64,000 nt of DNA from an uncultured Dehalococcoidaceae bacterium (GCA_964615345.1 CAZTMR010000002.1:17428-81427); one strand, 5' to 3'; numbered from the stretch's first letter, positions 6,949 to 24,830 are shown. Made by a program: numbers and translations. Notes: a model not told the origin generated them from the sequence alone.

Positions 6949-8091
6949 ATGTTGAGAAGAGTCATAATTCTGGTGGCTGTTTCCCTGCTGCTGGTGCTAC
7001 CTCTCCTGGCGGGTGCCGGCTGCGCCATGCCGTATATCGATATCGAACCGGCGCCACCCACCAGCCCCGCACCGTCACCGGAACCGGCGGCGTCTCCGGA
7101 GCCGATAGACCCGGCCTGGACAGCGCCGGCTTCCGGCGTCCGGGGCCCGGAGTTGCCCAGCATCGCCGATGTCGTCGCCAGGGTCAGGCCTTCCGTAGTG
7201 GCCATCAATACCGAGGCGGTATCCTTTGACTTCTTCAATCGACCTTTCACCGAGGAAGGAGCCGGCTCCGGGTGGATACTGGACCCGGACGGTATCATCG
7301 TCACCAATAACCACGTGGTGGAAGGGGCGGACACGATAACCGTCTCCATGGGTGACGGCAGCACCTACACCGTGGATACGAGCTCCGTTTTCACCGACCA
7401 GCTGAATGACCTGGCCATTATCAAGATAGACGCCACGGGGCTTCCGGCGCTGGAGACAGGGTATTCGTCCGAGATGAGAGTAGGCGACTGGGTGGTGGCC
7501 ATCGGCAACGCTCTCGGGCAGGGGATACGGGCCACCCAGGGAATCGTCAGCCGCCACGGAGTAACCATTCCCATAAACCAGGGGCAGACCCTGTACGACC
7601 TCATCGAGACCAGCGCGGCGATCAACCCCGGTAACAGCGGCGGGCCGCTGCTGAACCTGGCCGGAGAAGTTATCGGCATCACCAGCGCCAAAATCGCTAC
7701 CGTGGGCGTGGAGGGGATGTGTTACGCCATCAGCACGGAAACCGCCCTGCCCATTATAGAGGCGCTGGTACAGAACGGATACGTGGTCCGGCCCTGGCTG
7801 GGGGTGGCCCTGTACACGGTGGACCAGTTCGCCGTATCAAGGTACGAACTGTCCGTGGACGAAGGCGTGCTGGTTACCCGGCTGGTAGCGGGAAGTCCGG
7901 CGGCCGAGGCCGGGCTGGAAGCGGGTGACGTCATTGCCAGCATTGACGGGAAAAGCGTGACCAGAGCCGAGCAGGTGATACGGCTAATCCATTCCGCGGA
8001 AGTAGGCCAGAGAATAGAGATAACCTACTGGCGCGGGGAGACGCGGCATACTACCTCCGCGGTCCTTACCGAAATCCCGCCGCCGGCCTAG
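6949..8091 (+). CDS. HtrA/DegP-family trypsin-like serine protease with C-terminal PDZ domain; probable lipoprotein
   Basis: 'TNNHVV', 'DLAIIKI', 'GNSGGPLLN' (His/Asp/Ser triad context); PDZ-like 'GSPAAEAGLEAGDVIASIDG'. Signal peptide ends 'LLAGAGC' (lipobox-like). Pro/Ala/Ser linker. Confidence 0.9.
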   Translation: MLRRVIILVAVSLLLVLPLLAGAGCAMPYIDIEPAPPTSPAPSPEPAASPEPIDPAWTAPASGVRGPELPSIADVVARVRPSVVAINTEAVSFDFFNRPFTEEGAGSGWILDPDGIIVTNNHVVEGADTITVSMGDGSTYTVDTSSVFTDQLNDLAIIKIDATGLPALETGYSSEMRVGDWVVAIGNALGQGIRATQGIVSRHGVTIPINQGQTLYDLIETSAAINPGNSGGPLLNLAGEVIGITSAKIATVGVEGMCYAISTETALPIIEALVQNGYVVRPWLGVALYTVDQFAVSRYELSVDEGVLVTRLVAGSPAAEAGLEAGDVIASIDGKSVTRAEQVIRLIHSAEVGQRIEITYWRGETRHTTSAVLTEIPPPA

Positions 8092-11000
8092 GACAGCTTT
8101 TTCACGCCCAGGACAAGGGTATTTTCGCCCAGACGGTAGCTTTCAGAAAACACCCCCTCTTCCGGCACGTTCTCCACGAGCTGTTCGGAAAGCGTTTCCT
8201 GCCTGATGTAGTCGGCGAAGCCGGTGATGACTTCTCTCAGGTAAGTATCACCGTCATAGTAGGTTATGATGTGGTCGGCGATATCGAACCCGGCGGCGCG
8301 GCGCATATTCTGTAGCCGCCGCACCACCTCCCGTGCGGCCCCTTCCGCGGCCAGTTCCGGGGTAATCTGCGTATCAATGGCCACGGCCGAGTTTCCGGAG
8401 GCGCTAAGGACGTACCTCGGCTCGCTCAGCCGGGTGATATCATCGACGGCTTCAATCTCTTTCACGTTGACCTCTTCCCTTATCTGGTAGGCAAAGCGCA
8501 GGGCCGCTTTCTGGAGCTTCTCCGGCTTGACGCTTACCGCCATGCGGGCAATCGGCTGGCGCACCTTGATGCCGGCCTTGCTCCGGGCCGCGCGGCCGAG
8601 GCTGGACAGCTCCTTGACAATCTGGACCTCCGCCATAACGTGTTTGTCAATCCGGTCCCTATCCGACACCGGAAAATCAGCCAGGTGGACGCTCTCCGGG
8701 GCCTGCGGGAACACAGTGCAGACCAGGTTCCGGTACATCTCCTCCGCGAGGAAGGGAGTAAACGGCGCCATCAGTTTGGTCAGAGTTACCAGGCAGTGAT
8801 AGAGCGTGTGGTAGGCAGCCAGTTTATCCGCGTCATTTTCACTCTTCCAGAAGCGGCGGCGGCTCCGCCGCACGTACCAGTTGGAGAGGTCATCCACGAA
8901 GCTTTCTATTTTCCGGCCGCCCTCGGTGGGATTGTAGTTTTCCAGCGCCTCATCGACATCGATGATGAGCTGGTTCAGTTCGGAGAGGACCCACCGGTCC
9001 AGCTCCGAGTGGCTTTCCGCCGGTCCCGCACCGGGAACGAAATTATCAATATTGGCATAGTTCACGAAAAAGGAGTAGACGTTCCACAGGGTGAGCAGGA
9101 AGCGGCGGGTTACTTCCGCCACCGCCTTTTCCGCGAAGCGGCGCACGTTACCCGCCGAGGTGGACGTGTAAAAGTACCAGCGCAGCGGGTCAGCCCCGTA
9201 CTTATTGATAACCTGCCAGGGCTCAATGACGTTTCCCTTTGCCTTGCTCATCTTTTCACCCCGGGCGTCCAGGATATGGCCCAGGCAGATGACGTTCTGG
9301 AAGCAGGGGCGGTCAAAAAGCAGCGTGGAGATGGCGTGCAGGCTGTAAAACCAGCCCCGGGTCTGGTCTATCGCCTCACAGATAAAATCGGCCGGGAAGC
9401 GCCCGTCCTGGAGGAGGGTCTCATTTTCAAACGGGTAGTGGTGCTGGGCCACGGGCATCGCCCCGGAATCAAACCAGCAATCGATGACCTCCGGGACCCG
9501 TTTCATCTCCCCGCCACACTTCGCGCAGTCGAAAGTCATCTCGTCGACGTAGGGGCGGTGCAGGTCCGGGGGCTCCCGCCAGCCGCGGAATCCCGGCTTC
9601 TGTTTCAGTTCTTCCGTACCCCCGATGCACTCGGTCTCTTCACAGGCAGCGCAGCGCCAGACGGGCAGCGGCGTTCCCCAGTAGCGCTCACGGGAAAACG
9701 CCCAGTCCACGTTATTTTCCAGCCAGTCCCCGAAGCGCCCGTGCTTGATGTGCTCCGGGTACCAGTTTATCTGCGCGTTGCCCGCCAGCAGGCCCTCTTT
9801 CACCGCCGTGGTGCGGATGTACCAGCTCTGCTTCACGTAATAGAGCAGGGGTGTTTCACAGCGCCAGCAGAAGGGGTAGGTGTGCCGTATCGTCTCGCTC
9901 TTGAAGAGGAGCCCCTTTTCCCGCAACGCTTCCAGCACCAGCGGGTCAGCTTCCTTGACGAACTTGCCGGCGAAAGAAAAGTTGCCGGTCATTTTCCCCT
10001 GCAGGTCCACCGGCTGGACAAAGTCCAGCCCGCGTTCCATACCCGCCTCAAAGTCAACTTCACCGAAGGCCGGCGCCGTATGCACGATGCCGGTGCCGTC
10101 CTCCAGCGAAACAAAGTCAGTATCAATCACAGGATAATTGAAAAGACCGGGTTTTTGCCGCTTAGCGTCCGGTGACGTTTTTCTTTTTCCGGTGAGGCCG
10201 GTCACCTTGACCCCGTAATCGAAGGGGTTGAACAGGGGTTCGTAGCGCAGTCCCGCCAGGTCACTGCCTTTCACCGCAGCCACCACCGGTGCCTCGCCCA
10301 GTCCCACCGCTTCCTGCCGGGCCGCCGCCAGGATGATGAACTCGTCTTCCTTTTCCACGATGACGTAATCAGCATCGGCGTTCACCGCGAGGGCGGTATT
10401 GCCGGGGAGAGTCCAGGGGGTGGTGGTCCAGGCGAGCAGATATACGGGCCGGTCCCCGGCCAGCTTCAGCAGCCAGCCGGCGAAATCCGCCACCCGGTCG
10501 CCGCAGGTCTTGCGCATCCGGGAAAGGGAGCCGGACGTCTCATAGGCCGACCTGGCCAGCTTGAACTTTATGTAAACAGACGGGTCTTCCACGTCATCCC
10601 GGTAGCCCAGGGCGACCTCATGGGAGCTGAGCGAGGTGCCGCAGCGCGGGCAGTGAGCGGCCGTCTTGTAGCCCTGATAAACCAGGCCTTTGTCCCACAT
10701 CTGCTTTATGGACCACCAGACCGTCTCTATATAGTCATTCTTCATGGTCACGTAGGGGTGCTCCAGGTCTATCCAGAAGCCGATGCGCCGGGTCATGTTT
10801 TCCCATTCTTTGAGATAGCTGAACACGCTTTCCCGGCAGCGGGCGTTGAATTTATCAATGCCGTACTCCTCAATCTGGGGCTTGGTGGGCAGGCCGAGTT
10901 GCTTCTCTATCTCCAGCTCCACCGGCAGGCCGTGCGTATCCCAGCCGGCGATGCGCGGGGTGTAATAACCTTTCATCGCCCGATGGCGCGGGATGATGTC

Positions 11001-11195
11001 TTTGAAAATACGGGCGAGCACGTGGTGGATGCCCGGACTGCCGTTAGCCGTGGGGGGGCCTTCATAAAAGACGAACCGGGGACCGCCCAGGCGGGAGTCC
11101 ACACTCCGCTCAAAGATGTGCTGGCTCTGCCACCAGTCAAGAACCGCTTCCTCCACCTGTGGCAAATTCATCTGGCTTTTTACCGGCTGGAACAT
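8088..11195 (-). CDS. ileS: Isoleucyl-tRNA synthetase
   Basis: Class I 'PPTANGSPGIHH' (HIGH) and 'KMSKAKGN' (KMSKS) motifs; about 1035 aa. Start moved to ATG 11195 (MFQPVKSQ...) because the upstream 13 codons overlap the leader terminator; GAAGGGG SD. Confidence 0.95.
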   Translation of the reverse strand: MFQPVKSQMNLPQVEEAVLDWWQSQHIFERSVDSRLGGPRFVFYEGPPTANGSPGIHHVLARIFKDIIPRHRAMKGYYTPRIAGWDTHGLPVELEIEKQLGLPTKPQIEEYGIDKFNARCRESVFSYLKEWENMTRRIGFWIDLEHPYVTMKNDYIETVWWSIKQMWDKGLVYQGYKTAAHCPRCGTSLSSHEVALGYRDDVEDPSVYIKFKLARSAYETSGSLSRMRKTCGDRVADFAGWLLKLAGDRPVYLLAWTTTPWTLPGNTALAVNADADYVIVEKEDEFIILAAARQEAVGLGEAPVVAAVKGSDLAGLRYEPLFNPFDYGVKVTGLTGKRKTSPDAKRQKPGLFNYPVIDTDFVSLEDGTGIVHTAPAFGEVDFEAGMERGLDFVQPVDLQGKMTGNFSFAGKFVKEADPLVLEALREKGLLFKSETIRHTYPFCWRCETPLLYYVKQSWYIRTTAVKEGLLAGNAQINWYPEHIKHGRFGDWLENNVDWAFSRERYWGTPLPVWRCAACEETECIGGTEELKQKPGFRGWREPPDLHRPYVDEMTFDCAKCGGEMKRVPEVIDCWFDSGAMPVAQHHYPFENETLLQDGRFPADFICEAIDQTRGWFYSLHAISTLLFDRPCFQNVICLGHILDARGEKMSKAKGNVIEPWQVINKYGADPLRWYFYTSTSAGNVRRFAEKAVAEVTRRFLLTLWNVYSFFVNYANIDNFVPGAGPAESHSELDRWVLSELNQLIIDVDEALENYNPTEGGRKIESFVDDLSNWYVRRSRRRFWKSENDADKLAAYHTLYHCLVTLTKLMAPFTPFLAEEMYRNLVCTVFPQAPESVHLADFPVSDRDRIDKHVMAEVQIVKELSSLGRAARSKAGIKVRQPIARMAVSVKPEKLQKAALRFAYQIREEVNVKEIEAVDDITRLSEPRYVLSASGNSAVAIDTQITPELAAEGAAREVVRRLQNMRRAAGFDIADHIITYYDGDTYLREVITGFADYIRQETLSEQLVENVPEEGVFSESYRLGENTLVLGVKKLS

Positions 11196-11211
11196 ATTGT
11201 AAAACCCCTTC

Positions 11212-11487
11212 TCTAACAAAAAGTCCCGTCCCAAGGGACGGGAACCAGTCAGCCCGCGGTACCACCCTATTTCCCCGGAGTTCCGGGGCGCTTTTTCCGG
11301 GGCACGCTCCGATGCCCCCGTCAGGATAACGGCTGACGCCGGCCGGGCCTAGTGAGCAGGGTTACCGTCCGCCTGCCGTTCAGCTGGCGACTCGGGAGTG
11401 ATTTTCCGGGAGGCCGGTCACGTCTGCTTCCACTGTCTCAGACTCGCTGGGTGCCAACTATTTCCCGTACTCGTCTCCGTCCACGTC
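11212..11487 (-). promoter_or_regulatory. T-box leader, Ile-specific (predicted), upstream of ileS
   Basis: Minus strand has 'AATAGGGTGGTACCGCGGG' (core = plus 11255-11267), followed by the terminator TCCCGTC/GACGGGA + CTTTTTGTT (plus 11212-11243). Candidate specifier 'GAAA-AUC-A' at plus 11400-11402. Confidence 0.8.
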
Positions 11488-11493
11488 TTTACG

Positions 11494-19672: not shown

Positions 19673-20098
19673 TTACCCTTTTTTCCGGCGGCAGCGCCCG
19701 CAATAGCCGATCATATTGACCTCGGTGGCCGTAATGTCAAAGTCTTTCACCGCCGGCACGTTCTCTCTCAGGTAGTCCGATAATGGATAGTTGAACTCCA
19801 CCACCCGGCCGCAACCCAGACACTTCAGGTGATGGTGTTCCGTCGATGGTTTAGCCTCGTAGTGGTGATGGTTTTCATCGAAGTGGAGTTCGTCCACCAG
19901 TTCCAGTTCCTTCAGCACGTTCAGGGTTCGGTACACGGTGGACAGGCTCAGCCGCGGCTCCTTTTCCCGGGCCTGGCGGTAGATTTCATCAGCGTCCAGG
20001 TGCCCGTGTCCGCGCCTGATGATACTCATAATCAGGGCGCGCTGACTGGTTACCCTCCTTCCCGCGCGGTTCAACATCTTTTTTTCCGTTACCGGCAT
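19673..20098 (-). CDS. fur: Fur-family metal-responsive transcriptional regulator
   Basis: 'RVTSQRALIMSIIR...HLDADEIY', 'LSTVYRTLNVLKE', 'HHHLKCLGCGRVVEF', 'GYCGRC'. ATG 20098 chosen (GGAG SD) over the GTG at 20113. Confidence 0.85.
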   Translation of the reverse strand: MPVTEKKMLNRAGRRVTSQRALIMSIIRRGHGHLDADEIYRQAREKEPRLSLSTVYRTLNVLKELELVDELHFDENHHHYEAKPSTEHHHLKCLGCGRVVEFNYPLSDYLRENVPAVKDFDITATEVNMIGYCGRCRRKKG

Positions 20099-20125
20099 TC
20101 CGTTACACTCCACAGTTAAATATGC

Positions 20126-20144
20126 TAATGATAATCACTTGCAA
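20126..20144. promoter_or_regulatory. Fur-box-like operator
   Basis: 'gcTAATGATAATCActtgc' matches about 15/19 positions of the classical GATAATGATAATCATTATC box. It lies between the predicted -10 and the fur start codon. Confidence 0.5.
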
Positions 20145-20148
20145 TAAC

Positions 20149-20178
20149 ATTATAGAATGCCTGCCGCTTCTCTGTCAA
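20149..20178 (-). promoter_or_regulatory. Putative promoter of the fur-feoB iron operon
   Basis: Minus strand reads TTGACA, 18 nt, TATAAT. Confidence 0.5.
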
Positions 20179-20217
20179 TACCCATCCCGGAAATTTTTTA
20201 GAAGAGCCGGAAAAAGC

Positions 20218-21036
20218 TCAGAGCGATGCCAGCGCCTTCCTGATTCGCGGCATGGCTCTACCGGTGGCCTCCCTTCCCAGCCGGATACACTCATGGGTTT
20301 TGCGGAAGTCACCGGCGCTCAGGTCTTTCAGCAGCGGTTCTATGGCGACGTCAGCCCCTTCCATGCTTTCCCGCACCAGTGAATGGGCGTTAATGTACAG
20401 CGTCTGCATCAGGACGTGAATGATGCCCGGCTCTTTCCGGCGCCCCTTTTCCTCCCCCGTCCGGCGGGCACGGTCGGCAACGTCCGGCATCACGTTCACG
20501 GCGATGACGAAATCCGCCCCCATCTTCTTCACCACGCTTACCGGCACCGGGTTTACCAGACCGCCATCCACCAGGTACCGTCCGCTATTCTTCACCACCG
20601 CGAATATCGCCGGCAGCGATATGCTGGCCCGGACCGCCTCCGGCACGGAGCCGCGATTGATGACCACCTCCTCACCGGTGTCAATATCCGCCGCCACGCA
20701 GGCGAAAGGTATTTTTAAATCACTGAACCTGACATCTCCGCCGATAAAAGAGGTGATAAGGTCTTTTATTTTTTTACCCTTGATGAAGCCGCTCCGGGGC
20801 AGGGAGGGGTCAATGAAGCGGGGGAGGCGGTATTTTTCCAGCTCCAGGGCGATGCGCACCATCTCCGGAGCGGTCTTGCCGCAGGCGTAGAGCGCCCCCA
20901 CCGCCGCCCCGGCGCTGGTGCCGGCGATCATATCCACCGGGACACCTTCCCGCTCCAGGGCTTCCAGTACGCCGACGTGCGCCATCCCCCGGGCGGCGCC
21001 ACTGCCCAGCGCCAGGCCGATTTTCTTACGCCGCAT
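20218..21036 (-). CDS. Patatin-like phospholipase (RssA/YlbK-like)
   Basis: 'GLALGSGAARGMAHVGVLEAL' (oxyanion GGxR-like), 'GTSAGA' (GxSxG nucleophile), 'VDGGLVNPVP' (DGG Asp). 41 nt downstream of herA with a GAGGAAAG SD. Confidence 0.85.
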   Translation of the reverse strand: MRRKKIGLALGSGAARGMAHVGVLEALEREGVPVDMIAGTSAGAAVGALYACGKTAPEMVRIALELEKYRLPRFIDPSLPRSGFIKGKKIKDLITSFIGGDVRFSDLKIPFACVAADIDTGEEVVINRGSVPEAVRASISLPAIFAVVKNSGRYLVDGGLVNPVPVSVVKKMGADFVIAVNVMPDVADRARRTGEEKGRRKEPGIIHVLMQTLYINAHSLVRESMEGADVAIEPLLKDLSAGDFRKTHECIRLGREATGRAMPRIRKALASL

Positions 21037-21077
21037 CTTTCCTCTTCTGCGTTAACCGGTGAAACGCCTTTGTCCGG

Positions 21078-22688
21078 CTAGCCCCACAGGTCCTCGATGT
21101 CTCTTTCCGCCTGTTCCTTGTCCACCGCCGGACTGCGGGCGGCCAGTTCCCGGTAAGACTCGGCAGAGCCGTATTCCCTGGTTTTGACCACCACCGGCAT
21201 CGGCAAAGCGTGGCCGAAGATGAGCGCCTGCTGCTTGGAGTCCAGCCGGGAAAGCACCGCTTTCAGGGCGCTCTTTCCGGAGACTCCGGCCAGAACGCTA
21301 TCGATATCCCGCTCGTTGTCCAGCAGGCAGGTAATCTTGGTCCCCATCTGGGACATTACCTCGCTGTCGATACCGCTGGGACGCTGGTCAATCACCAGCA
21401 AACTGACGTTGTATTTCCGCATCTCGCGGGCGATAACCCCGAAGATGGTCTGCCCGGCCACTTCCGGATTGAGAAAGCGGTGCGCTTCCTCGATGGTTAT
21501 CACCAGCGGTGTGGGTCTGGCAGCGTCACCGCCCATCGCCTTCTCCATCCGGTCACGGTACTGGGCGTGAATGCGCCGGGTGAGCAGGTTCGCCACCAGG
21601 ATATAGGCGGTGATATCCGTGTAGCGCCCGAACTCCAGGACCACGTTCATACCCCGGTCCAGGTGGTCGATAATGCTTTTCACCGCGTTGGCCGGCGCCT
21701 TCGGCTCGATGAAGGCCAGGCGCTGGATGGTGGCCAGTCCCCGCCTCAGGTTCTGGAAAGTGCTCTCGTGGATACTCATTTCCTTCAGCAGTTCGGCGGT
21801 CTCCTCCGAGTCCGTCAGTTCCAGAGCCCGTCCCAGCCAGCTTCTGCCGAAACGACGGCGCAACTGATAGATGGCCTCGACGGCCGGCTCGGTCAGGTTA
21901 AGCGTCTGGCGCAGCAGCACCATATCCTCCGGCTCAATCTCATCGTAGCCGATACGGACCGTAAAATCGGTGCTGACTTTCCGCCGCCGGGAACTCTCTT
22001 CATCGAGGGTGAACACGGCCACACTGGACGGGAAAAGCTGCTTGAGCGCCTTGACCGAACGGCCACCCTCGCTGGTGCCTTCCCAGCCGTACTCGTTATG
22101 CATATCGAATATCAGGTTCACCGAGGCGCTTTTCTGGAGCATGCCGATAAGCAGCATCCGGGTGAGGAAAGTCTTGCCCGTCCCGCTTTTGCCGAAGATG
22201 CCGTTCGACCTTTTTACCAGCTCCGGCAGGTCGAGGCAGATTCTGGTCTCCATATCCAGCGGCGTGCCGATGTAGAACCGCCGCTCGTCCTCGCCGCCGA
22301 AGACCAGCTCCACGTCCGACTGGGAGGCGAGATTCACCGTCGAGAAGTGACTGGGCACCGTTTTTACCGGCCGGGGTCCTTCGACGAGGTCGGCCGCCTC
22401 CCCACCGATGGTCAGCATGGGCGCCACGTGCAGCGAGCCGAAAGTGCTGGTCCCGGCAAGGACCTCGGTGAGGAAGGGGTCGGATACGTCCGGCGGCGTC
22501 AGGGTGAGCCGCTGGTCCGTCACGCCCAGGCTGATATCGGTAATCATGGCAAAGAAGCGCTGTTTTTGCCCCTCGATGGTGACGTAGCGTCCCACCGCCA
22601 TATCCTCCACGGATACCTCTCCGTCCAGCTTTACTTCAACGCCGCTCTCCAGCGAGCCGGCGACGACGATGCCGAGTCGCTCGCTCAT
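21078..22688 (-). CDS. herA: HerA-like (DUF87/FtsK-HerA superfamily) hexameric ATPase
   Basis: N-terminal HAS-barrel-like 'LGIVVAGSLESGVEVKLD...VGRYVTIEGQKQRFFAMITDISL'; Walker A 'GIFGKSGTGKTF'; 'LVITIEEAHRFL' (Walker B/sensor); 'SLLVIDQRPSGID'. Confidence 0.8.
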   Translation of the reverse strand: MSERLGIVVAGSLESGVEVKLDGEVSVEDMAVGRYVTIEGQKQRFFAMITDISLGVTDQRLTLTPPDVSDPFLTEVLAGTSTFGSLHVAPMLTIGGEAADLVEGPRPVKTVPSHFSTVNLASQSDVELVFGGEDERRFYIGTPLDMETRICLDLPELVKRSNGIFGKSGTGKTFLTRMLLIGMLQKSASVNLIFDMHNEYGWEGTSEGGRSVKALKQLFPSSVAVFTLDEESSRRRKVSTDFTVRIGYDEIEPEDMVLLRQTLNLTEPAVEAIYQLRRRFGRSWLGRALELTDSEETAELLKEMSIHESTFQNLRRGLATIQRLAFIEPKAPANAVKSIIDHLDRGMNVVLEFGRYTDITAYILVANLLTRRIHAQYRDRMEKAMGGDAARPTPLVITIEEAHRFLNPEVAGQTIFGVIAREMRKYNVSLLVIDQRPSGIDSEVMSQMGTKITCLLDNERDIDSVLAGVSGKSALKAVLSRLDSKQQALIFGHALPMPVVVKTREYGSAESYRELAARSPAVDKEQAERDIEDLWG

Positions 22689-23266
22689 TTCAGCCTCCCC
22701 AGAATCGATTTCAACTGCTGGAACTGCCCGCCGAGCAGAACGGCCAGCTCTTTCCCCGCTCCCACCAGGTAGGCGCGGGGGTCATCCTGCGCCCGGCTCA
22801 TCTCCCGCAGGGTGGCGGCTACCAGTTCCTCCACGGAGACCGGGAGCCGGCTGTTCACCAGAATACCGAGGAAGTCATAAGACTGCCCGAACTCTCTTGT
22901 CTCCTCCGCGCCGCAGCGGTAGACGAAGCCGTGGATGCGGGCGGGGCGGGGAGGCAGGTAGTGATTGAACTTTTTCCCCCGCCGGTGTCCCGCCACCAGA
23001 ACACTGAACTCGCTTCTCAGTAGCTTCAAAAGCTGGGGGCTGGCGCGGTAGATATCCTCTTCACTGGCCTCGTCTCTGCCCCGCGCCAGCGGCCGCCGTC
23101 CCGGCTCCAGGCTGCCGGTGGCGGCGTGGTAAACGATTCCGTAAAGGTCAGTCTCCCCGTCCCTGGCCCTGACCAGGCTGCCCAGCGGCGGCGACTGATA
23201 AAGCTCGTAGCACTCGGCGGTGAATTCGGTACTGCTGGCCTCGATAATCTCACCGATTCTGTCCAC
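22685..23266 (-). CDS. Hypothetical 193-aa protein with HAS-barrel-like N-terminus, translationally coupled to herA
   Basis: GTG start. 'IGEIIEASSTEFTAECYELYQSPPLGSLVRARDGETDLYGIVYHA' resembles the HerA N-terminal barrel. Its stop overlaps the herA ATG (ATGA), with GGGGAGG as the herA SD. Confidence 0.7.
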   Translation of the reverse strand: MDRIGEIIEASSTEFTAECYELYQSPPLGSLVRARDGETDLYGIVYHAATGSLEPGRRPLARGRDEASEEDIYRASPQLLKLLRSEFSVLVAGHRRGKKFNHYLPPRPARIHGFVYRCGAEETREFGQSYDFLGILVNSRLPVSVEELVAATLREMSRAQDDPRAYLVGAGKELAVLLGGQFQQLKSILGRLK

Positions 23267-23376
23267 AGTTTCCGCTCTATTTTCTATGGCCCCTCACCCC
23301 CTTTATATTTCTGAAGAACACGTTCCCATTTCCCAGATGGGAAAAGGAGAATTTTGGAATCCCTCTCAGGGCCATT

Positions 23377-23544
23377 TCACCTTACCGCCATTCCCAAGAA
23401 GTACGGCCAGACCACAATGCCGAGAATAATTTTCCACCAGACCAGCCCGGCGAAAGCGATGGTGAAGAGCCAGCCAGCGAACCAGAACATCCCTGCCAGC
23501 GGAGATGTCCCCACCCCACCCCCGGTCTTGTTTTCTGGTGTCAT
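23377..23544 (-). CDS. 55-aa Trp-rich two-helix membrane peptide
   Basis: ATG 23544 is preceded by a perfect AAGGAGG SD. MTPENKTGGGVGTSPLAGMFWFAGWLFTIAFAGLVWWKIILGIVVWPYFLGMAVR has two hydrophobic helices. The track's GTG-extended 70-aa version is less likely. Confidence 0.6.
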   Translation of the reverse strand: MTPENKTGGGVGTSPLAGMFWFAGWLFTIAFAGLVWWKIILGIVVWPYFLGMAVR

Positions 23545-23579
23545 ATCGCCTCCTTCAATGAAACGCGAGTTTAGCCCAC

Positions 23580-24779
23580 CTAAACCCACCGCGTTCTTTT
23601 ACTGAAACTCTTGGCGGAGGTAAGGGTGGGAATTTTCTCTTCCAGGCAGAGTGCTTCCACCAGCCGCCAGAACTCTTCCCTGTCCGCGCCGGTGACCACT
23701 GCCTGCTCGTGGGCCTCCGCCAGCGCTACCGGGTAGCCCTGTCCGCGCCGACACTGGTCCAGCACCAGCGCGTGGGTCAGGCCGAGCACCTCTTCGTTTT
23801 CCGCCACCCAGCGCGGTACCTCCACGCGGGCAACCTCGTCCCCCGCCCGGAGATAGAAGAACTGCACCTGGTGTTCTCCGTAACGCTCCCGGATGATTCT
23901 GGACGGGCTGATGAACCGGCCGGATCTCTCGCCGTCGGCGAGCAGGTTCGAAAACAGGTCGCGGTCTCTCACTCCGGCCACGACATCGCACTCCCGCTCT
24001 TTCCCCGGCGGGCAGTTACGGTCGCAGTCGGCCGGCTCGTAGGGACAGAGCGCCACCCGCAGCGCGTTGACCACGTCAGTGCTGCGCGGGAAGCTGATAT
24101 AGCTGGCCACGGCCAGTTTCCGATCCCGGTTCAGCCTCCTGATTTCTTCCAGGCAGTCCAGGAAGCCGTCCGTGAGCAGCACTTCGGTGACGAACTCGGG
24201 ATAAGCTTCCAGCCCCCAGAGAATGAGCGAGCCATCAAGCAGCGCCAGACCGGTACTGCCCGGAGGCATGCCGGCAGCGAGCCCGGCGAGACGGCGGCAT
24301 TCCTCGACACCGCGCTTGATGCCCAGCAGCGTGCCTTCCACGGGCTGTTCCCGCCCCCGGCTGGCGGTGGGTGCAATCACCAGATCCACGTCATCGGCGT
24401 ACAGCCGGGGAGAGCTTTCCAGGGCAGCGTCCGGCTCCGCTCCGTAGCGGAGGACGGCCGACCCCACATTTATCAGGTAGCACCGCGCCGAGCGGTGGCG
24501 GTCGACATCGATATGCGAGCCGTCGGCGGCGATGACACTGAATTCATCGGGGACGGGCGGCGCCGGGTGCCGGCTGGCCAGCTTCTCCACAAGTCCGGCT
24601 ACCAGCCAGGTGGTCCGGCTTTCCGCAGCTTTTCTTTGCAGCTTCTCCAGGTCAAGCGCTCCGTCGTTGATGACTTCCATGGCGCTCTGGAGCCGCTTCT
24701 CTCTTTCTTCCCGGTCGTCCCTGAGGCGGGATACCATTCGGCCCACCTGCGGAGCGACCCTGCTCAGGTCCAGTGACAC
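23580..24779 (-). CDS. nurA: NurA-domain nuclease-like protein
   Basis: 'FSVIAADGSHIDVDRH', 'LALLDGSLILWG', 'ASYISFPRSTDVVNALR', 'DLFSNLLADGERSGRF', 'VQFFYLRAGDEVARVEVPRWV', 'GYPVALAEAHEQAVV' follow the bacterial NurA pattern as I recall it. GTG start with an AGAGGAG SD. Confidence 0.75.
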   Translation of the reverse strand: MSLDLSRVAPQVGRMVSRLRDDREEREKRLQSAMEVINDGALDLEKLQRKAAESRTTWLVAGLVEKLASRHPAPPVPDEFSVIAADGSHIDVDRHRSARCYLINVGSAVLRYGAEPDAALESSPRLYADDVDLVIAPTASRGREQPVEGTLLGIKRGVEECRRLAGLAAGMPPGSTGLALLDGSLILWGLEAYPEFVTEVLLTDGFLDCLEEIRRLNRDRKLAVASYISFPRSTDVVNALRVALCPYEPADCDRNCPPGKERECDVVAGVRDRDLFSNLLADGERSGRFISPSRIIRERYGEHQVQFFYLRAGDEVARVEVPRWVAENEEVLGLTHALVLDQCRRGQGYPVALAEAHEQAVVTGADREEFWRLVEALCLEEKIPTLTSAKSFSKRTRWV

Positions 24780-24801
24780 CGCTCTGCTCCTCTTTGAGCA
24801 A

Positions 24802-24830
24802 ATTATAATTCTTCAGGGTAACTATCTCAA
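24802..24830 (-). promoter_or_regulatory. Promoter of the nurA-herA operon
   Basis: Minus strand reads TTGAGA, 17 nt, TATAAT; about 20 nt upstream of the nurA start. Confidence 0.55.

Follow-up and report, generated by a model that had tools for sequence, protein, structure and literature searches.

A third conserved gene, encoding a predicted free-standing HAS-barrel protein, in the nurA–herA locus of Dehalococcoidia

Genes and signals of the locus

We analysed a locus on the minus strand of a 64,000-nt stretch of DNA from an uncultured Dehalococcoidaceae bacterium. This whole stretch is called the window here, and all coordinates refer to it. Between positions 20218 and 24830, five co-directional open reading frames (ORFs) encode, in reading order, a NurA-type nuclease (399 aa, 23580..24779), a two-helix membrane peptide of 55 aa (23377..23544, counted from its ATG), a 193-aa protein that we label p193 (22685..23266, GTG start), a HerA-type ATPase (536 aa, 21078..22688) and a patatin phospholipase (272 aa, 20218..21036). 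All five were found at the positions given by an initial annotation, which had taken them for one expanded NurA–HerA unit. Comparison with a set of about 170 related loci points instead to a conserved core of three genes, nurA, the p193 gene and herA, in which the middle gene is predicted to encode a HAS-barrel protein that stands alone.

Several signals that had been listed for the locus can be read directly in the sequence: an AAGGAGG Shine-Dalgarno sequence lies 5 nt ahead of the ATG of the 55-aa peptide, the p193 stop and the herA start overlap as ATGA, and 41 nt separate the herA stop from the patatin ATG. The proposed sigma-70-type promoter of nurA, TTGAGA-17-TATAAT (24802..24830, minus strand), also stood up, matching the consensus at 11 of 12 positions in a consensus scan. 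A related element, TTGAG[TA]-17/18-TATA[CA]T, is kept at the same spot upstream of nurA in about 17 related loci, and the promoter is thus credible as more than a chance match. Terminator-like sites in the locus numbered 7, compared with 5.5±2.2 in shuffled sequences. Since no convincing internal terminator was found among them, co-transcription of all five genes from this one promoter is possible.

The identities first assigned to the nuclease, the ATPase and the lipase were confirmed by Pfam (the lipase, with an E-value of 2e-32, is treated further below). NurA matches PF09376 over model positions 2-254 of 254 (E 1.7e-26, 93.7 bits, cut-off 21). Its DGS and EAHE motifs are present in all 53 orthologues compared, and an alignment of 16 diverse orthologues showed D86 (in DGS), D93, E160, D182 and H357 (in EAHE) to be invariant. 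No solved NurA was matched, either with the single sequence (E <= 0.01) or with a 16-sequence profile (E <= 1), and the AlphaFold2 model from the single sequence reached a predicted local distance difference test score (pLDDT) of 38.6. Two further features were noticed in this protein. An N-terminal extension of about 75 aa, predicted to be helical, precedes the Pfam domain (24555-24779, residues 1-75), and the clade carries an internal insertion with four cysteines (CPYEPADCDRNCPPGKERECD; 23985-24060, residues ~240-265). Three of these cysteines are invariant while the fourth moves its position, a pattern that suggests a metal site.

HerA matches PF01935 (DUF87) with an E-value of 2.6e-31 (109.9 bits, cut-off 23.2) and has a HAS barrel of its own at residues 6-97 (PF09378, E 3.7e-8, 33.8 bits, cut-off 25.2). 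The Walker A motif GKSGTGKT, which had been pointed out before, is present and is shared by 66 of 70 orthologues; Walker B (IEEAH) is found in 70 of 70. Sequence searches of PDB returned HerA chains, including Sso and Tko HerA at 1e-13 to 1e-18. By motif and profile, the protein is thus a predicted hexameric ATPase of the HerA/FtsK superfamily.

p193 and the three-gene core

On its own, p193 gives a weak match to the Pfam HAS-barrel model (0.035, below the cut-off); in its family, 31 of 60 members match the model by themselves, the best at 2.5e-9. An AlphaFold2 model built from a 60-sequence alignment (pLDDT 94.1, predicted template-modelling score 0.89) begins with a beta-barrel that contains a short helical insertion, and five helices come after it (residues 120-192, ~75 aa). 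When this model was compared with PDB by Foldseek, the best 50 matches were all HerA chains, with a probability of 1.00, and came from archaeal, Deinococcus, Sir2–HerA, DUF4297–HerA and TdpA proteins. The aligned stretch covers about half of the query (TMq ~0.45), as fits the N-terminal HAS barrel. Sequence searches of PDB yielded nothing meaningful, whether with the single sequence or with a 60-sequence profile. The "extra HAS-barrel protein" of the initial annotation is borne out by the predicted structure and these fold matches, and we regard p193 as a predicted free-standing HAS-barrel protein without an ATPase domain. A comparison by hhalign of p193 with the HerA encoded next to it gave a weak N-terminal match in register (E 0.15), so that a recent duplication of the neighbouring barrel does not account for p193. 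We take it for an anciently diverged copy of the NurA-binding domain of HerA, joined to a small helical bundle.

The family is a large one. We obtained 3063 matches in a database clustered at 90%, and the best 120 of these share at least 69% identity with p193, apart from one at 61%; the named ones among them belong to Chloroflexota/Dehalococcoidia. At 50% identity the family falls into 748 clusters, nearly all of 186-220 aa. Some members are already labelled "HAS-barrel domain-containing protein" by NCBI, and the family is not curated in Pfam or NCBIfam. One database protein (P0203) proved to be a read-through of a NurA C-terminus into p193. We rejected the possibility that p193 stems from a phage or plasmid: the phage and plasmid collections and PHROGs gave no match, and BFVD gave no significant viral fold match.

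To follow the locus in relatives, the five window proteins and their flanks were located by tblastn, loci were fetched via a protein index, and genomes were scanned with a five-sequence p193 alignment. The genome scan found relatives in 283 GTDB species genomes, of which the best 80 are all Dehalococcoidia, mostly Dehalococcoidales. Throughout the Dehalococcoidia loci nurA lies upstream of the p193 gene, and the p193 gene always lies between nurA and herA. The gap from p193 to herA is at most 45 nt in 72 of 84 loci of the Dehalococcoidia type, often only 0-4 nt, and ranges from 94 nt to 6.5 kb in the other 12. Identity to the window proteins is 69-90% for HerA, 62-84% for p193 and 59-74% for NurA. 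The order of flanking genes is kept as well: SecD/F, a cation-efflux protein (CDF), a deacetylase (HDAC) and LysE on one side, Fur, FTR1, FeoB and DtxR on the other. This conserved flank order, together with the high identity to the window, argues for a nurA–p193–herA locus that is inherited vertically, as a housekeeping locus would be, at a fixed chromosomal position in Dehalococcoidia. Because nurA, the p193 gene and herA alone stay together across lineages, the conserved unit appears to be these three genes and not five. The idea of an expanded unit with syntenic accessory genes therefore holds for p193, which travels with both nurA and herA; it fails for the peptide and largely for the patatin gene, which are discussed below.

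Beyond Dehalococcoidia, we searched for distant relatives with P0250, a protein 36% identical to p193, and a metagenome scan added 80 loci, which were classified with hidden Markov models (HMMs) built in this analysis. The P0250 search returned members named as Ca. Dadabacteria/Thermodesulfobacteriota, Armatimonadota and other Chloroflexi. Their arrangements differ. In L087 and L089 nurA overlaps the p193 gene and no herA is nearby, while L088 has p193 without either partner. A non-Dehalococcoidales Chloroflexi locus (L090) reads nurA–[inserts]–p193–herA, and two unassigned distant loci read p193–97 aa–herA (L091) and nurA–p193–herA (L092). Nine loci of other lineages have nurA–p193–herA operons, several of them compact, and in two more the pair p193–herA stands at the edge of a contig. 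In 44 metagenomic loci, nurA abuts or overlaps the p193 gene and herA is not nearby; 30 of these 44 extend at least 3 kb downstream. Gene order thus couples p193 to NurA in several lineages; coupling to HerA is seen in Chloroflexota and in a few metagenomic clades without assignment.

In the most distant clade of the family (32-36% identity), a p193-like gene directly follows, and often overlaps, the gene for RNase HII (rnhB). At least 15 loci of L155-L174 have this arrangement, with LexA divergently upstream and MutL nearby; examples are L161:6366-8576, where MutL lies 1.6 kb downstream, and L163:6525-8585. No NurA or HerA was detectable near these genes. In this clade the p193 family would thus be coupled to another nuclease of RNase-H fold, in a repair neighbourhood.

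Variable neighbours of the core

In 56 loci, the interval between nurA and the p193 gene measured between 122 nt and 7.7 kb, and its contents vary by species. Besides the 55-aa peptide, we found an HSDR_N_2 nuclease-like protein, LOG/SLOG, flavodoxin, nitroreductase, PNPOx, 23S-rRNA-IVP, DUF2130, an N6/N4 methylase–Mrr fusion, a type I/IIG-like methylase and a transposase-like ORF. HicA is also present in this slot, with an adjoining small ORF that resembles HicB but has no Pfam match, and in L090 it is occupied by a CoA ligase and NTase/HEPN modules. Some inserts run against the strand of the core genes (L061, L076), and in those species p193–herA must therefore have a promoter of its own. 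Because plainly metabolic genes (flavodoxin, nitroreductase, PNPOx, LOG) also occur there, we take the interval for a hotspot of insertion in general, not for a defence island.

The 55-aa peptide is a real, conserved small gene with 365 homologue clusters, all of about 55 aa, and it has no Pfam match. Of 53 complete intervals searched with an HMM, 9 hold it, the window included. Homologues that are 67-71% identical occur in unrelated contexts, for example between an Fe-S protein and DsrC (L093) and in a region of transposase and toxin–antitoxin genes (L094). The peptide is thus best described as a promiscuous passenger of the slot, probably not a subunit of the core. In L059 (5665-6075), two tandem copies share one stop-to-stop frame (HMM E 5e-44), and the listed 125-aa ORF spans both.

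A second small element of the interval is a Lys-rich micro-ORF of 18-27 aa, MG[ST]KGRKN[VI]KKPK(Q/K)xKxKK…, which lies on the gene strand between nurA and the p193 gene. It is present in 51 loci (L003:7757-7819, L007:330-392, L018:7832-7888 and 48 further loci), and 31 of the 53 complete intervals contain it. In the shortest of the intervals that were read through (L003, L049) nothing was seen but this micro-ORF and hairpins; L032 and L071 have it twice. Variation is concentrated at third codon positions (entropy by codon position 0.19/0.10/0.84) and a Shine-Dalgarno sequence precedes 50 of the 51 copies, from which we conclude that it is coding. It matches no Pfam or NCBIfam family and was not found outside the Dehalococcoidales set.

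In the window, the spacer 5' of the p193 gene (23267..23376), compared with L007 and other loci, retains a hairpin and the AAATATAAAGGGGGTGAGG motif seen at this place in relatives, and it has lost the micro-ORF that relatives carry there. The spacer folds no better than its shuffles (z +0.66), and an Rfam search of the locus returned no RNA element. The start of p193 is uncertain within 23264-23296. The first canonical start is the GTG at 23266, with a poor Shine-Dalgarno sequence. In alignment, the ATG of relatives falls on an in-frame ATA at 23287, which lies downstream of a conserved GGGGGTGAGG motif. The same start stretch of the nearest relative, L007, also reads ATA and is without a canonical start.

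At the other end of the unit, the patatin protein has the GTSAG and DGG motifs of the catalytic dyad, as had been noted, and a Gly-rich oxyanion loop. It shares the patatin fold, the GxSxG motif and the DGG dyad with RssA-type patatins and with CBASS CapV. In NCBIfam it scores 174 bits against RssA, below the equivalog cut-off of 272. Among the Dehalococcoidales loci, 58 reach far enough downstream to be informative, and 37 of them have the gene no more than 1.5 kb past herA. The distance from herA is 5-72 nt in 23 of these 37, and in the other 14 a gene of about 170 aa stands between them. The remaining 21 loci keep nurA–p193–herA and lack the patatin gene, with fur or unrelated genes following herA, and it was found in none of the 88 loci of other lineages. 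Its association with herA thus seems to be lineage-specific synteny, not a conserved functional link, although it is perhaps co-transcribed with herA.

The gene between herA and patatin encodes a membrane protein, of the MauE family in L005 (10221-10730). It is also inserted in L009, L011, L018, L023, L025, L026, L034, L055, L056, L061, L064, L070 and L076, and with it the spacing is constant at ~520-530 nt in one subclade.

The initial annotation had considered that the patatin might be a membrane-targeting effector as in CBASS. This candidate was rejected: the CBASS lipase model gave 22.2 bits against a cut-off of 200, the protein is RssA-like instead, and no CD-NTase/cyclase was found among the neighbours of the locus.

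These data bear on two readings that would include all five genes. According to the first, the locus is an anti-phage or abortive-infection system in which NurA/HerA senses or degrades invading DNA, while the patatin and the peptide kill the cell via its membrane. Such a system would account for the co-directional, tightly spaced genes without a clear internal terminator and for the 23 loci in which patatin follows herA at 5-72 nt. In PADLOC, HerA has partial matches to generic HerA models and the patatin has weak matches to CBASS phospholipases (1e-5 to 1e-7), but NurA, p193 and the peptide have none, so that the suggested check against a defence database returned generic similarity for two of the proteins. 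Nor did the Pfam and PADLOC scans of the five proteins reveal a Sir2 or DUF4297 effector beside herA. The peptide occupies the slot in few genomes and has close homologues elsewhere in others; patatin is absent from more than a third of the Dehalococcoidales loci that keep the core and from every locus of the other lineages, and it resembles RssA, not CapV. Moreover, the locus keeps a fixed position among housekeeping genes across the recovered species, unlike patchy and mobile defence systems. We therefore judge a five-gene defence system to be very improbable, and the membrane-coupled reading that had been offered initially finds no specific support.

The second reading holds that all five proteins form one complex for DNA-break processing, with the peptide and the patatin as accessory subunits. 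It has the gene arrangement of the window and of a minority of relatives in its favour. But both genes come and go independently of the core, and we know of no lipase or membrane peptide that is linked to the resection of DNA ends. This seems to us the most far-fetched of the explanations considered here. What survives of the initial proposal of a break-processing complex with accessory subunits is p193 as one such accessory. The neighbouring lipase and membrane-peptide genes, for their part, are not evidence for membrane-coupled defence, and a tempting over-reading of the gene order is corrected here.

Downstream of the unit, the gene after patatin is fur (20113..19673, minus strand); it corresponds to a gene in the same place in L003 that matches Pfam FUR. 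It is preceded by a promoter that agrees with the consensus at 12 of 12 positions (TTGACA-18-TATAAT, 20149..20178, minus strand), and with this promoter the unit ends on its downstream side. An AT-rich, Fur-box-like palindromic stretch (GTGATTATCATTAGCA) follows this promoter (20120-20180, minus strand), which would suggest autoregulation. Farther away on the same strand, Rfam recognised a T-box leader at 11231-11492 (RF00230, 95 bits, just over the gathering score), directly 5' of a 1048-aa ORF (11234..8088), presumably an aminoacyl-tRNA synthetase.

Proposed function and comparison with known systems

We favour, as the reasonably probable explanation of the whole, a NurA/p193/HerA module for DNA-end processing in which p193 is an adaptor subunit and the peptide and the patatin are dispensable neighbours. 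By analogy with known systems, the HerA hexamer would thread duplex DNA through its central channel using ATP, and a NurA dimer docked on the HAS-barrel face would digest the strands. Judging from family membership, the outcome would be that DNA ends are resected or degraded to serve recombinational repair, and perhaps that foreign linear DNA is removed as well. In solved systems the HAS barrel is the NurA-binding surface of HerA (PMC9960219, PMC3326311). Genomic coupling suggests that p193 could be a stoichiometric third subunit that forms or modifies the platform for nuclease docking and, as such an adaptor, recruits NurA to the motor or regulates it there. The reason for proposing this role is that the free HAS barrel p193 shows translational coupling with herA in certain lineages and with nurA in others.

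The main alternative for the role of p193 is that of a decoy or inhibitor, in which the free barrel covers the HerA-binding surface of NurA or caps the HerA ring and would thereby hold the nuclease away from the motor until it is required. A protein folded like HerA's NurA-binding domain (PMC9960219, PMC3326311), only distantly related to the barrel of its own HerA (hhalign E 0.15) and coupled to nurA even without an adjacent herA, could act in this way. However, the tight translational coupling to herA (ATGA in the window, and the short gap in 72 of 84 loci) suggests stoichiometric co-assembly, and we consider inhibition distinctly unlikely.

A housekeeping role in DNA-end processing is favoured over abortive infection because of the vertical inheritance of the locus, the lack of copies on mobile elements and the RNase HII/LexA/MutL context of the distant relatives; a dual role like that of RecBCD, directed also against foreign linear DNA, may exist. 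Several observations weigh against a module for end processing with p193 as adaptor. The best PDB sequence match of HerA is the HerA of the Sir2–HerA system (6e-21). Neither the NCBIfam repair equivalogs NF040819 and NF040937 (70.7 and 74.7 bits, cut-offs 970 and 800) nor the anti-phage models NF042943 and NF042944 (78.5 and 47.7 bits, cut-offs 800 and 850) are reached, and the protein appears to be equally similar to anti-phage HerAs and to archaeal repair HerAs. In relatives, the slot beside nurA sometimes holds restriction–modification and toxin–antitoxin genes, which lends it the flavour of a defence island. p193 stands with neither nurA nor herA nearby in 25 loci, the clade beside RNase HII among them, and it may act with NurA alone, given the 44 loci without an adjacent herA. 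Finally, deletion of nurA or herA in Deinococcus/Thermus has led to modest or even improved damage resistance (PMC9960219), so that the repair role is insecure even in the characterised bacterial systems.

Some of these points would also fit a core whose main role is immunity: fixed in the chromosome, it would destroy linear foreign DNA in the manner of RecBCD and would not serve chiefly as a repair machine. Sir2–HerA and DUF4297–HerA defence ATPases are among the nearest solved relatives of HerA by sequence, the slot repeatedly gains restriction–modification methylases, HicAB, HEPN/NTase modules and a transposase, and archaeal HerA–NurA has been suggested to protect against extrachromosomal DNA (PMC3326311). 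On the other hand, the locus is vertical, highly conserved and part of a syntenic housekeeping region, the collections searched hold no phage or plasmid copies of p193, the clade beside RNase HII, LexA and MutL stands in a repair context, and the metabolic genes in the slot make it a general hotspot. A mainly immune function is therefore rather unlikely in our view, and we retain DNA-end processing as the preferred reading.

More tentatively, the p193 family may be an unrecognised class of nuclease accessory proteins, in which a free HAS-barrel ring or platform recruits nucleases of RNase-H fold to DNA, and NurA–HerA would ancestrally have had three components. The partner would be NurA in Chloroflexota, in the Dadabacteria type and in others, and RNase HII in the distant clade, with a HerA motor in some lineages and possibly none in others. 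We regard this as possible but doubtful. Either way, the locus offers a testable hypothesis on what organises or regulates the docking of nucleases on ring translocases, and a family of several hundred sequence clusters is a resource for structural work.

The HAS barrel was reportedly defined by Iyer et al. in 2004, and an earlier mention of proteins like p193 there is possible. In the literature that could be searched by full text, neither a free HAS-barrel protein as partner of NurA–HerA nor a NurA–HerA system of Dehalococcoidia is described. In bacteria, NurA–HerA has been said to occur "in a few bacteria", has been studied only in Deinococcus–Thermus, and its role there has been called controversial (PMC9960219). 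The bacterial type described here is different and far more widespread, with relatives in 283 species genomes from one scan (the best 80 being Dehalococcoidia).

The archaeal HerA–NurA systems for end resection (Sulfolobus, Pyrococcus, Thermococcus; PDB 4d2i, 9x1l/9x1m) likewise combine a NurA nuclease with a HerA that has an N-terminal HAS barrel and Walker A/B motifs. Whereas the archaeal genes form a herA–mre11–rad50–nurA cluster, the window has LysE, HDAC, CDF and SecDF on one side and patatin, Fur and FeoB on the other, without mre11 or rad50. The window locus also adds the stand-alone HAS-barrel gene, and its NurA is divergent, with the N-terminal helical extension and the four-Cys insertion. 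DR_0836/0837 of D. radiodurans (PDB 7wrw/7wrx; PMC9960219) are also a bacterial chromosomal NurA and HerA with a HAS barrel that binds NurA. DrHerA was not among the PDB matches of the window HerA at E <= 1e-3. The Deinococcus–Thermus type has two genes and two proteins and is active in vitro (PMC9960219), while a third protein is conserved in the type of the window, where p193 and the variable slot separate nurA from herA.

Anti-phage systems such as Sir2–HerA/Nezha, DUF4297–HerA and TdpAB are likewise built on a hexamer of the HerA family, with the effector docked on the HAS-barrel face. In the window the partner is NurA and not Sir2, DUF4297 or TdpB, and the locus is vertical, in a housekeeping neighbourhood. 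The type of the window has a dedicated third protein predicted to share the fold of HerA's nuclease-docking domain. The HAS-barrel domain PF09378 is found at the N-terminus of HerA and of F1-ATPase subunits; p193 has the same predicted fold in a free-standing protein of ~195 aa, with a C-terminal helical bundle of its own, encoded beside nucleases: NurA here and RNase HII in the distant clade.

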